Source of the DNA: Reclinomonas americana ATCC 50394
Taxonomy: Eukaryota
DNA length: 20,000 nucleotides
Direction: 5' to 3'
Assembly (NCBI GenBank): GCA_048213135.1
Contig: PS015015.1
Span: 51,499 to 71,498, forward strand
Shown here: one piece after another, positions 973 through 19,933 of the stretch
Layout of the letters: each line of letters begins with the position of its first letter
How positions within the stretch are numbered: the first letter of the stretch is position 1
Notes under the pieces: generated by a model
What the model saw: the letters and a program-made list of their open reading frames with translations, nothing else
Databases searched by the model: none
What the model was told of the DNA's origin: nothing
Made by a program: the position numbers and the translations under genes

Positions 973-2084
973 TCAGTTTCGCAGCGAAACGAGGACCTCA
1001 TCGAACACACGCTTCGGTGCATCGGTGAAGAACATGGTGGCGAACACGTGCGTGCCAAACACCGGGTGGCTCAACACCTTGCAGCAGCCGAGCTCGACCA
1101 CGTCCATGCCAAAATGCACGTAGCGATCGTCGGTCTCGAACAGCGTCGTGCTCGTGTGCGCTCCACGAGCCTGCGCACCAGCGTGTGAGTCACGGGCAGC
1201 AAGCTCCCTTTTCACAGGAATAAAACGCAACAGGTTGTCCACAGCCGGCATCAATGTAATCGGCCCAGTAGCCCTGCTCCTCCAGCGCCGCCACCAGTCG
1301 CGATCCGAGACGCTCAAACTGCACTTGGCATGTCAGCCTCATTCACAACACTATTCTCATCACCAGACGACGACGCAACATTCTCATACAGCCGCTCGCG
1401 CTCCTGCTCAACCTCACCGCCCCACGTACTCATGTCGTGCGCGGTCCGTTGTGAGACAGTCGCCACTGTGAGATCGGTCACATCGCGATCCGGGAACAAG
1501 TCGGCCAGATCGCGGCGCACGTGGCGCGGGCACGGGAACGACTTGAGCTCGACCTGCACACCGCATGCAGACTTAGCGTGCGTGCACGTCGACAGCGTGC
1601 GCACGCTGCTGCACGCCCACTCACCTCCGTGTCATTCTCCACCACGTCGACCACAAACGGCTTGTCGACGTGGTAAATGAGGGGATTATCCTCGGGCTTG
1701 ATGGTCGGCAGCTCCATTCCTGACGGCACCGCAGGTCCCACCGCCTCAGTCGCCTACCCGACACACCACAGAATGAGCAACAGAGTGATGAGCGCGCTTC
1801 TTTTGGTGAGCGGCAACGCAACACGAGCAGCGCGCAGCCACGATCCCACAGCCACTGCCGGTGCAACGACAGGTGTCACCACAGACGGAGGAGGGGCGCT
1901 GCGCACAGAAGCACCAGCGGCCTGACGCGAGGCTGCACACAAAAGATGCGATCAGTGCGCGTGTGTGCATGGAATCCTCGACCGCGCGTGTGTGCACACC
2001 AGCAGAGGGAACTCCCGTCACTGGTGCCTCACGTGTGAACAAGTTGCGAGTGCCGTTGCGTAGGGCCTGAGCAGCGCGTCGCAT
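973..2084 (-). CDS. MMADHC: Cobalamin trafficking protein CblD (MMADHC) with predicted mitochondrial presequence; introns 1933-2032, 1754-1822, 1554-1624, 1319-1379, 1171-1231
   Basis: Spliced product VELKSFPCPRHVRRDLADLFP...TVSQRTAHDMSTWGGEVEQERERLYENF...LEEQGYWADYIDAGCG...TLFETDDRYVHFGMDVVELGCCKVLSHPVFGTHVF matches the human MMADHC motifs TVTQKTKNDMTVWSEEVE, GYWADFIDP and [34 protein letters not shown]. N-terminus MRRAAQALRNGTRNLFTPSRQAAGASVRS is Arg/Ser/Ala-rich and acid-free. An alternative in-frame ATG lies at 2138. Confidence 0.93.
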
Positions 2085-2134
2085 GCGTGTTTGTGTATGA
2101 ACGAAATGAAGAGGACAAGGACCAACCAAGTTCT

Positions 2135-17100: not shown

Positions 17101-19933
17101 CGCTGCAGTGCATGCTGGCGGATCTCGGTGCCGTGGAAATGGTAACTCGATAGTGATAGTGTTGTTGGGTGGTGGTAAGCACTGAATGCTGCTTGTGTGT
17201 GTCGCGCCCGCAGGTGTGCCAATTGATGACCCAGGCGCAATCACCCAAGCTGGCGCAAATGGTGTTTGAGTTTGGCTGCAAGTTGCTGCAGGGTGGCAAC
17301 CGCTACGTGCAGACGTACTTTTACCGCTTGATGCAACACGGCGGCAGCGCCGAGCATCTTCTCGTGGGCTTGCGCAATCGTCTGCAAGTTGCGACGACGG
17401 AGATTGACGAGAAACTGGCGTACGAGGAGCTGCTTGAGCGCCGTCGCAATGAGCTCGAAGATGACGAGTTGGGTGCTCGTGTGCAGTGTCTTCCCCCTGT
17501 CTCTCATGCACTGCTGATGTCTGTTGCGCAGAAACAATCCCGAGAACGACGCGCTTGAAGTGGCATTCGAGGAGCGCGGGTTTGCGGCAGAGGTCCTTCG
17601 CTTCATTCAGTTGCTGTGTGAAGGGCACTATCTGGAGATGCAGGTACGGCGAGTGTGAGGGAGTGATTATTACAACTGCGCTTGTTCACTCACTCGTGGG
17701 ATCACAGGATTTCCTCCGTCGACAGCCCGGTCGTGGAGTGGAGAATGTGGATGTGGCCAGCGAGATCCTGAGATACTTGCGCGCACTGGAGCCCAATCTG
17801 ACGACGGCGCGCGTGGATACTGCGGTGCAGCTGTTCGCGACGCTGACCGACCTCATGCAAGGCCCTTGTGTGTCCCAGCAGCAATCACTGGCCGCCTCCG
17901 ATTTCCTGTTCATCGCCAACCGCCTGCTGGAGACGGCACCGAATGATGCACCGTCACTGGGTTTTGCACGACTGCAGCTGACCGTACTCGACTCCATGAT
18001 GGCAGTGATTGAGGTGAGTGCTCAGAGGAAAAGTGTACGTGTTGTGTATCAGTCAGTCCTCATTGTTGCGCGCAGGGGCCATCGGCGTTGGAAACCACCA
18101 AGCAACTGCGACTGGCCATCACACTGAACAACATTGCGCGCAGTGCAGTGCAACTGCATGCCGTGATGGAGGAAGCCGAACGGGTGGGCGTGCACCGCAA
18201 CATTGTGTCGTACGGCAAGAGTCTGTCGACAAACGCGATGCGACCGGCGTCGCCCGACTTCCCGCTGCAGAAGGCTTTCACGTTTTGGATAGAGGACCCG
18301 GTGCTTATTCGCACACTCGGTATCCGCTACTACTTCCTCATCAACAGGCTCGGCGACGCGTCGCCCACTGTGCAGCGGCATGTGAGTTGATGTGGATAGT
18401 AGAGCCGGCGCTATGTGTGTGTGTGTGCCGACCGTCGTTCGTCGCAGATCGGCAAGTTGGTGGACGATGAAAGTGCGCGGCTTGGCATCCGTCCCGCGGC
18501 TCCCGGTAAGTGCCTGCTGTGGCGTTTCCAGCGCAACACCGGGCACGTGGAGGTGCTTCGCAATCAGGAGGTCGAAAAGTTGTACTTTGAGATTCCGCCT
18601 CTGGCCTCGTGGTTCCAGTCGCGGCTCTATCGCCGCTGGCAGGACGAGGTCGATCGCAGCTCGTCGACCTCCAAACTGGAGGGCCTCTTCCGTGAGGTGC
18701 CATACTTTTACCAGCACATGCGACACGGAGTTGCGTGAAGTGTCTTGTCTGTCTATCCCGTTTCTTACGCACATCCTCATTCTCTTCGGCGCCCACCTCG
18801 CAGCTGTACTTGCGTGAGACAAAGTGGTTCCGCTACAGCAATCTGACGCTGCCGTACACGCGCCAGCTCAGCTTTGTCGTCGGCCTCTGCATCAATCTGA
18901 TTCTGCTGTTCGCCTTCCAAGTGCAAAACATCGACTCGGACTTGAACGTTGTCACGTTGCGTCTGTGGGAGAGGGTCAGCACTCTTGTCGCGTGTCGGAG
19001 GTTGCGGAGCTCATGTGGCGATGCTTCGTGCAGATCGTACGGCTACAAGACGGACGGAGCCGGACATGCAGTCATCATCCTCGCCATTATAGAAATCTTC
19101 CTTCAGCTACTTCTGTTCCTTGGTTATATTGCCGGCCCAGGTGCATTGCGCGCCATGAAACAGTGGTCGCCGGCACTCGGATATGTTGCGCTCCACTGCT
19201 CTTCATTTCATCGTCTTGCTTCCCCACCGTTTTCTTGACTGTGGTTTTTCTTGTCTGCAGCAACACTTGACGGATCTACCGCGCGCTTCGGCCTCTTTTA
19301 TGCGCAACATTCTCCGCGGGTACTTCCGAGACTTTTTGTTCTACTTTAGAGTGCGTTCGCCGACTGTCGGTGTGGTGCGCTTCACGTGTTGCTAACTATT
19401 GCTCTCACTCGCTGCAGGTGGCCTGTGTGGTCGTCAGTGCACTCGGATTGCTCGTGAGCGAGGCGTTTTTCCCGTTCCTGCTGCTGGACGTGGTGCTGTC
19501 GTTCAGCATTCTTCGCAATGTGGTGCGATCGGTGTCGACAAGCCTTGTCAACCTGCTGCTGACGGTGACCACATTTGTTTGCGACTTTGTCGTCTTTCAA
19601 GCTCACCCTTTGTGCACAGCTCATGCTCGGTCTCTTCATCATCTTCTTCTTCGCCATGGTGCAAATGGTGTCCTTCAACGACGAGTTCATCCTGTCCGAC
19701 GGCTACCGCATCTGCAGCGAGGCCACCGGCTGCTTCTTCAATCTCATGAACTTTGGGTACGCGCGGCTGCTTTTTCTCTCTTTCACATTTGAGCTCACGT
19801 ACGGCACGTCGCAGTTTGAAGCATGGTGGCGCCTTCGAGGATCTCTACCCTGTCAATGTGACGCCCGCACGAGTCATTTTCGACTTGCTGTTCTTCTTCC
19901 TGATTCTCGTCGTGCTTCTCAACCTGGTGTTTG
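8165..19933 (+). CDS. ITPR: Inositol 1,4,5-trisphosphate receptor family Ca2+-release-type channel (divergent), about 46 introns, 3'-incomplete (continues past the window within helix S6)
   Basis: Collinear ITPR motifs after splicing: FLRFGDRIVL, GTVDDRV, YKAQSAF, VTYGTVVQLRH, RAEGERVQIGD, GDTVRIFH, FRLRHVLTGAYL (suppressor/MIR trefoils); RSRQILFRE, DVGAEAAIMELF (RIH); LVRAAFDRLLLHLYVDRNP; RLLFRVFQQR; second RIH TIFDGNRRL; YHVELLSLLSLC; LLQGGNRYVQ; LRFIQLLCEGHYLEMQDFLRRQ; LTDLMQGPC; TGHVEVLR..VEKLYFEIP; TM region ending ARVIFDLLFFFLILVVLLNLVFG (IP3R1 [23 protein letters not shown]). One intron near 16270-16355 is unresolved. Confidence 0.96.
9837..9883 (+). repeat. (CCA)n trinucleotide repeat at the 3' end of ITPR intron 9789-9886
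   Basis: About 15 perfect CCA units directly before the acceptor cag; gives spurious poly-Pro/His/Gly in the ORF track. Confidence 0.95.
11915..12580. other. Assembly gap (666 N) inside the ITPR-like gene
   Basis: Run of N. Confidence 0.99.
15852..16264. other. Assembly gap (413 N) inside the ITPR-like gene
   Basis: Run of N. Confidence 0.99.

Follow-up and report, generated by a model that had tools for sequence, protein, structure and literature searches.

Atypical human 5' splice sites can pair with U1, a small nuclear RNA (snRNA), in a register shifted by one base (+1), as described by Roca and Krainer in 2009 and summarized in sections of PMC4856993. In other lineages the block of U1 that pairs with the donor (the 5' splice site) is itself changed to match: sections of a preprint (10.1101/2022.06.08.495308) set the block ACAAAC of Entamoeba against GUUUGU donors and a candidate block of Mastigamoeba, ACGUAC, against GUGCGC donors. 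In the G+C-rich green picoalgae Micromonas (PMC3879977) and Ostreococcus (PMC2483917), the main-text passages on splice sites give the donor consensus as AG/GTGCGT (here and below, a slash marks the border between exon and intron). Here we describe the donors in 20,000 nucleotides (nts) of Reclinomonas americana ATCC 50394 (contig PS015015.1, positions 51,499 to 71,498; this whole stretch is called the window below). About one third of the introns curated in the window (21/63) begin with a GTT-type donor, mostly GTTGCG, that resembles the ordinary donor of the same genes moved one base downstream.

Donors were assigned to classes by intron bases alone. G at intron position +5 defines class 1; class 2 combines T at +3 and G at +6 with a base other than G at +5. 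By this rule 36 of the 63 curated introns are class 1, 21 are class 2, 4 are neither, and 2 are both. The last base of the exon (position −1) was never G in the 21 class-2 donors (it was T in 8, A in 7, and C in 6), whereas it was G in 34 of the 40 other donors (Fisher P = 2.4e-11). This is the association between a non-G base at −1 and T+3/G+6 that an initial annotation of the window had anticipated. The difference was also found in the subset of donors that ranked first by homology, where G preceded 0/8 class-2 donors versus 20/24 others (P = 4.7e-5).

Human shifted-register sites are rare, numbering in the tens, whereas such a register would apply here to 21 of 63 introns. Class 2 is best filed as a shifted-register donor class that follows a known principle but is abundant rather than exceptional. 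As at the human sites, GU stays at +1/+2, the usual motif comes one base late, every U1 pair would be displaced by one position, and the cut would not be set by the U1 register; however, the human shifted block, UAAGU, pairs with the standard U1, whereas the block here is UGCGU, with a nearly invariant C that the standard U1 cannot pair. The human register with a bulge at +2/+3 (Roca et al. 2012, by way of PMC4856993) likewise has an extra U after GU and the remainder one base late, but as summarized there it keeps the −1 and +1 pairs, unlike class 2 with its lack of G at −1. Class 1 shares the GTGCGT core, including C at +4, with the donors of Micromonas and Ostreococcus; no second class, of the GTTGCG type, is mentioned in the main-text passages on those algae. 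As presented in the preprint's sections, the U1 of Mastigamoeba, an amoebozoan, is a precedent for a G opposite C+4, and a block of this kind would stabilize the shifted register of class 2 in silico. However, Mastigamoeba and Entamoeba are described there with one donor class each in the normal register, whereas two registers are implied here. We found no description of a GTTGCG-type donor class in the literature searched, which did not extend to supplementary material.

The window is about 60% G+C, contains three runs of N, and holds tightly packed eukaryotic genes with numerous short introns. Intron borders were inferred from open frames and homology, and the 63 introns were curated by hand and checked by translation; the initial annotation had about 68. 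Three automatic gene models were dropped. One that scored codons only misplaced many donors and gave way to the hand curation, a self-trained matrix model plainly over-called (91 introns), and a pattern model (59 introns) had several donors wrong. The curated set leaves out the first intron (donor 7367) and the 5' half of a membrane-protein gene, as well as, in a Yip1-family gene, one intron whose start lies in a (GT)n run.

Six genes make up the set. The MMADHC gene (minus strand; Pfam PF10229) encodes 249 amino acids (aa) from the ATG at 2086 and is stop-free once its introns are removed. A SETD3/PTAC14-like SET-domain gene, recognized by a structure search, lies on the plus strand at 2709-4243 and reads for 422 aa from ATG to stop. 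The Yip1-family gene is on the minus strand (Pfam PF04893). The inositol-trisphosphate-receptor (ITPR) gene spans 8166-20000, the last part of the window, on the plus strand (Pfam PF08709, PF02815, and PF08454), and its translation between the N gaps, 919 + 731 + 880 aa, is stop-free with the curated introns. The two further genes are a small coiled-coil gene and the membrane-protein gene, which has no assigned family. Class 2 occurs in all six, in multi- and single-intron genes and on both strands, which bears out the spread reported in the initial annotation. It may be distributed unevenly among them, since all four SET-gene introns are class 2, versus 10 of 44 in ITPR. To extend the use of such donors to the whole genome is to extrapolate from 20 kb.

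The 17 GTTGCG and 6 other GTTNNG sites of the initial annotation were all found where it had placed them (2484 on the minus strand), and in 23/23 the base before GTT is A, C, or T, never G. At the level of sequence, its observation is confirmed. GTTGCG occurs 37 times on the two strands, compared with 22.02 ± 4.50 times in 200 dinucleotide-preserving shuffles of the window, none of which reached 37; the excess is about the number of proposed donors. Twenty-six occurrences are on the sense strand of inferred genes and 11 are antisense or intergenic (binomial P = 0.02). GTTGCG begins 16 of the 63 curated introns but stands at only 3 of 715 exonic GTs that are not donors (an 81-fold enrichment; P = 4e-16), and for the class-2 pattern as a whole the fractions are 21/63 and 23/715 (P = 2e-13). 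GTTGCG was also seen directly before the 3' splice sites of two plus-strand introns, at 17523-17531 (where the intron ends in GTTGCGCAG) and 18065-18075 (GTTGCGCGCAG); this placement may be chance.

Removing the introns restores an open frame that is colinear with homologues, as judged from stop-free blocks, Pfam tiling, and profile positions that are continuous over most junctions. In MMADHC, three exons matched PF10229 at 124-180 (exon residues 1-57/58), 190-210 (9-29/29), and 214-263 (4-53), and gapless extension of these matches gave 124-181, 182-210, and 211-263 with neither gap nor overlap. Because the exons tile the profile exactly, donors 1379 and 1231 are fixed to the residue. For ITPR, we built a profile from 41 full-length relatives and scored every frame-keeping, stop-free GT/GC-AG pair near 44 junctions (1,646 in total). 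Six of the 11 GT-T donors ranked first (11049, 11367, 11655, 11829, 12974, and 18730), four more were at most 2.1 bits from the top (14643, 19185, 17468, and 18956), and homology left the eleventh, 13640, undecided. Among the other ITPR donors 24/33 ranked first, so the class-2 donors are about as well supported as the ordinary ones. Six class-2 ITPR donors exceeded their in-phase GT alternatives by 15.4 to 30.4 bits.

The initial annotation had held several junctions to be pinned by homology. Its IMEL/LF junction in ITPR does rank first of 80 alternatives. In the SET gene, the upstream exon of the junction that it cited aligns through ...DMVNHA with a solved SET protein, which supports that claim in part. 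Word-based protein searches with one ITPR, one SET, and one Yip1 exon gave nothing at E ≤ 0.001, and for this reason the SET and Yip1 junctions have no homology ranking. Frame consistency alone supports donors 1822, 2484, 2778, 3023, 3521 (which has partial homology), 3833, 4935, 5643, and 5878. The class-2 introns, together with one intron that fits both classes and one candidate donor, are as follows; ranks are among the frame-keeping pairs scored at that junction.

1171-1231, minus strand: MMADHC intron, donor T/GTTGCGT at 1231; the flanking exons tile PF10229 at 210/211, free of gap and overlap.
1319-1379, minus strand: MMADHC intron, donor T/GTTGCGT at 1379; the flanking exons tile PF10229 at 181/182.
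1754-1822, minus strand: MMADHC intron, donor T/GTTGCGT at 1822; the frame is open from the ATG at 2086, and there is no in-phase GT further downstream.
2404-2484, minus strand: coiled-coil gene intron, donor A/GTTACGC at 2484; 81 nt, in frame, mostly (CT)n/(CA)n, a gene-model call only.
2778-2846, plus strand: SET intron 1, donor C/GTTGCGC; open ATG-to-stop frame, no later in-phase GT.
3023-3087, plus strand: SET intron 2, donor A/GTTGAGT; open ATG-to-stop frame, no later in-phase GT.
3521-3587, plus strand: SET intron 3, donor C/GTTGCGT; alignment of the upstream exon with chain 8w9z_J reaches ...DMVNHA, and the downstream exon aligns with SETD3; with the single later in-phase GT, at 3542, the intron would shrink to 46 nt.
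3833-3900, plus strand: SET intron 4, donor C/GTTGCGT; frame open to the stop codon, no later in-phase GT.
4881-4935, minus strand: Yip1-family gene intron, donor T/GTTGCGT at 4935; frame kept, no later in-phase GT.
5572-5643, minus strand: membrane-protein gene intron, donor C/GTTGCGT at 5643; frame kept, no later in-phase GT.
5811-5878, minus strand: membrane-protein gene intron, donor T/GTTGCGT at 5878; frame kept, with a hydrophobic helix as the product.
7361-7367, minus strand: candidate donor C/GTTGCGT for intron 1 of the membrane-protein gene; ambiguous, with in-phase GTs 9 and 30 nt on, and included in no count.
11049-11121, plus strand: ITPR intron, donor A/GTTGCGG; rank 1 of 24, 15.4 bits over the sole in-phase GT alternative.
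11367-11424, plus strand: ITPR intron, donor A/GTTTCGT; rank 1 of 20, by a small margin (1.4 bits).
11655-11732, plus strand: ITPR intron, donor T/GTTGCGT; rank 1 of 80, 16.6 bits over the best in-phase GT alternative.
11829-11890, plus strand: ITPR intron, donor A/GTTTCGT; rank 1 of 8, by 0.6 bits; adjoins an N gap.
12974-13046, plus strand: ITPR intron, donor A/GTTACGT; rank 1 of 21, 30.4 bits over in-phase GT alternatives; profile positions 1101/1102 across the junction.
13640-13700, plus strand: ITPR intron, donor C/GTTGCGT; frame kept; rank 11 of 38, 5.1 bits under the top.
14643-14708, plus strand: ITPR intron, donor T/GTTGCGA; 25.5 bits over in-phase GTs; rank 2 of 27, 0.1 bit under a GC variant 3 nt downstream.
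17468-17531, plus strand: ITPR intron, donor A/GTTGGGT, which fits both classes; rank 3 of 64, with the alternative at 17486 better by 1.2 bits.
18730-18803, plus strand: ITPR intron, donor A/GTTGCGT; rank 1 of 29, 23.7 bits over in-phase GTs; profile positions 2354/2355; an in-frame TGA lies 6 nt into the intron.
18956-19033, plus strand: ITPR intron, donor C/GTTGCGT; rank 3 of 77, 1.1 bits under the top; in a variable loop.
19185-19260, plus strand: ITPR intron, donor T/GTTGCGC; 25.8 bits over the sole in-phase GT; rank 2 of 13, with a GC site 12 nt upstream ranked above it.

Two other plus-strand sites in ITPR have a bearing on individual calls. A canonical-looking GTGAAGT at 18735, 5 nt inside the intron that starts at 18730, is out of phase with the only frame-keeping acceptor. 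C/GTTTCGC at 10852, which has the class-2 pattern, and G/GTGAGT at 10882 are in phase, 30 nt apart, and separated by 2.8 bits; they may serve as alternative 5' splice sites, or the call may simply be undecidable.

Four positions near the donor (−2, −1, +4, and +7) lie outside the class definitions and show how the two classes are related. Compared position by position, class 2 differed from class 1 at all four (P = 0.029, 5e-5, 5e-5, and 0.0027, respectively). When class 2 was compared with class 1 one position upstream, no difference was found at any of them (P = 0.43, 0.27, 0.65, and 0.71). The exon-side profile of class 2 is displaced by one as well, and the one-base displacement proposed in the initial annotation agrees with these data. 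Eight donors have T at +3 together with G at +5. Seven of them follow G, the exception being 17468 (GTTGGG), a donor that agrees with the class-2 rule too and is preceded by A; the base at −1 is therefore linked to the place of the G and not to T+3. Among exonic decoys with the class-2 pattern, G preceded 5/23 (P = 0.05 versus the donors).

Some further sites concern the base at −1. Three plus-strand donors fixed by homology have no G at either +5 or +6 (GTGCAC at 15321, GTAACT at 17142, and GTGACC at 19565), and all three follow an exonic G. A G/GTTGCGT at 6615-6620 on the minus strand, in the 5' half of the membrane-protein gene, is the sole sense-strand GTTGCGT that follows G. A long intron beginning in a (GT)n run near 6671 probably contains it; if it were a donor, it would be a counterexample to the absence of G at −1.

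We calculated U1 pairing by free duplex folding. With the standard U1 5' end, class-1 donors had a mean of −6.17 kcal/mol and took the canonical register in 33/36 cases; 11 of the 21 class-2 donors folded in the shifted register, with 2 to 8 pairs (mostly 2 to 4). The C at +5 of class 2 is unable to pair with the standard U1, and it is present in 20 of 21 class-2 donors versus 21 of 40 class-1 donors with the corresponding C at +4 (P = 0.002). Overall, class 2 varies far less than class 1, with GTTGCG in 16/21. The poor pairing and the nearly invariant C+5 together suggest that a changed U1 or another factor may be involved. We also folded the donors with the block ACGUAC, a what-if sequence and not the observed U1 of this organism. 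With it, class 2 took the shifted register in 20/21 cases (−4.43 kcal/mol) and class 1 the canonical register in 35/36 (−8.41 kcal/mol).

A scheme that would account for these results is the following. The introns would be ordinary GT-AG introns of the major spliceosome, with lengths of 55 to 81 nt and a CTSAY branch site that precedes YAG by about 17 nt. Class-1 donors are G/GUGCGU and its relatives, with G+5, and class-2 donors are H/GUUGCGU, with U+3, G+6, and U+7. The class-2 donor would then be the class-1 motif, including its exonic part, moved one base downstream, with the intron's G+1 in place of the exonic G−1. The reader of the motif (the 5' end of U1 snRNA is the likeliest one) would bind class 2 one base out of the usual register, and cleavage would stay at the GU, set later by U6 and U5. 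The reader may have a G opposite C+5, as in an ACGUAC-like block, or some other factor may read the GCGU block. What is shown here is the donor sequences, their support from frame and homology, and the displaced composition; the register, like the identity and sequence of the reader, we infer. A U1 whose block has changed is a good candidate for the reader. We regard it as possible, though rather unlikely, that a single U1 with such a block (G opposite C+4, ACGUAC-like) reads both offset classes or that two U1 species exist, one for each class.

In their remaining features the two classes are alike. All 63 curated introns, the 21 of class 2 included, start with GT and end with AG. The median length is 68 nt for class 2 versus 67 nt. 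A YTVAY branch motif is present in 17/21 class-2 and 33/38 class-1 introns, at a median of 17 and 18 nt from the 3' end, respectively, and the 3' end is CAG or TAG in 20/21 and 38/38. G+C content does not differ between the classes. In their termini, their branch sites and the distance from these to YAG, and the restoration of the frame, class-2 introns correspond to U2-type (major spliceosome) GT-AG introns. U12-type introns, the other type considered, have the 5' end RTATCCTT and a branch site like TCCTTAAC. The class-2 donors are GTTGCGT and similar, the introns share the branch motifs CTCAC/CTGAC with class 1, and a U12 type was rejected. In an all-versus-all comparison, the 63 introns matched one another only in microsatellites and in a single 14-mer at the donor, with no family-wide similarity. 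With length, branch site, 3' end, and G+C content shared and no family similarity, the two classes look like substrates of one spliceosome.

Might class 2 owe its appearance to something other than a second mode of recognition? At 60% G+C long open frames are common by chance, and GTTGCG could be a motif of exons or introns that lies close to the real donors, or part of the set might not be introns at all; the pattern-based gene model did pick one class-2-like site wrongly. We think such misplacement very improbable, given the residue-exact tiling at two junctions, the first rank by homology at six more, the TGA 6 nt after 18730, the 81-fold enrichment at donors, and the strand split of 26 versus 11. 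The introns could also be GC-AG introns that start three bases later (GTT/GCGT...), with GTT exonic, since every GTTGCG contains an in-phase GC and at 14643 the GC variant scores better by 0.1 bit. However, the GC variant costs 4.3 to 5.3 bits at 11049, 11655, 12974, and 18730, and the PF10229 tiling at 1379 and 1231 leaves no space for an additional residue. It would also require an exonic GTT to be conserved across several codon phases and a GC donor to be nearly devoid of U1 complementarity, and we hold it to be extremely unlikely. We put equally little faith in recently spread mobile introns (introners) carrying GTTGCGT at their end. The uniform donor and the four class-2 introns of the SET gene would suit them, but the all-versus-all comparison gave no family of related introns.

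On balance we think it probable, with confidence a little above even, that the two donor classes have one reader, which binds class 2 in a shifted register. In a bulged register, C8 of U1 would pair with G+1, one U of +2/+3 would bulge out, and pairing would resume at UGCGU. Bulges at +3 (or +2) are described for human sites in the sections of PMC4856993, and because U1 has two adjacent C's the bulged register has as many pairs as the shifted one. It keeps the pair between G(−1) and C9, however, so that G would be expected at −1 as in class 1, which is the opposite of what was found (0/21 versus 34/40); the −2 and −1 positions of class 2 match the class-1 profile moved by one; and free folding with the standard U1 end found no stable bulged helix. 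The composition at −2, −1, +4, and +7 therefore supports the shifted register and argues against a bulged U, and we consider a bulge quite unlikely. The initial annotation had invoked a shifted or bulged register. Both are indeed published for human sites (PMC4856993, in the sections noted), but of the two the shift fits the composition, and the bulge would favor a G at −1 that is never seen; its interpretation is in this sense partly supported. A different possibility is that the classes have separate readers, with a second, dedicated U1 (or another snRNA or a protein) that matches GUUGCGU directly. The uniformity of class 2 (GTTGCG in 16/21, C+5 in 20/21) and its negligible pairing with the standard U1 would be explained, and changed U1 blocks exist in some lineages according to sections of the preprint (10.1101/2022.06.08.495308). 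Nothing in the window bears on this idea (Rfam gave no match over the 20 kb at gathering scores), one reader is simpler given that the class-2 exon profile is the class-1 profile shifted, and the other intron features are alike in both classes. We judge a dedicated reader unlikely.

A single reader in a shifted register has several points against it. With the standard U1 5' end, the mean for class 2 was −0.91 kcal/mol with no stable register; neither the shifted nor a bulged register, both invoked in the initial annotation, gave a stable class-2 duplex. Two other lineages that prefer C+4 have a standard U1, according to sections of the preprint (10.1101/2022.06.08.495308). The depletion of G at −1 below what a shift would predict is weak (0/21 versus 6/40; P = 0.085). 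As for the donors themselves, 10 in class 2 are backed by open frames alone, 13640 ranks 11/38 by homology, and 7367 is ambiguous. The class-2-like site at 15270, chosen by the pattern model, loses by 21.5 bits to G/GTGCAC at 15321, so that individual class-2 calls may be false. The consensus influenced the choice of donor at 8982, 10660, and 10882, three class-1 slots that were ambiguous. Finally, the sample is 63 introns in 20 kb.

If a single U1 with a changed block does read both offset classes, this lineage would as a matter of routine separate the U1 register from the cut site in a third of all its introns. A genome with about a third of such introns would be a large natural sample for how the cut is fixed when the first recognition is one base off, and it would let the coevolution of U1 and its targets be asked about. 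Gene finders trained on one type of donor would put many exon ends in the wrong place here, as our pattern-free and single-matrix models did.

The window has some other features of note. At 1-836 on the plus strand is the 3' end of another gene, with a Gln-rich C terminus and a stop near 836 and no Pfam match. Pfam also gave no usable match with exons of the SET gene and the membrane-protein gene, and a scan of metagenomes with an ITPR exon gave 208 pattern matches, of which 0 were confirmed. The closest relative of ITPR among 1.84 billion representative proteins was 39% identical over the queried exon; with a best match this distant, the protein itself and its close relatives must be missing from that library. 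Microsatellites, (ACC)n, (CA)n/(GT)n, and (CT)n, lie inside introns at 9835-9885, 7200-7300, 2430-2470, and 2795-2815. The (ACC)n run is in frame, and a poly-Thr reading is possible if the donor at 9784 is used.

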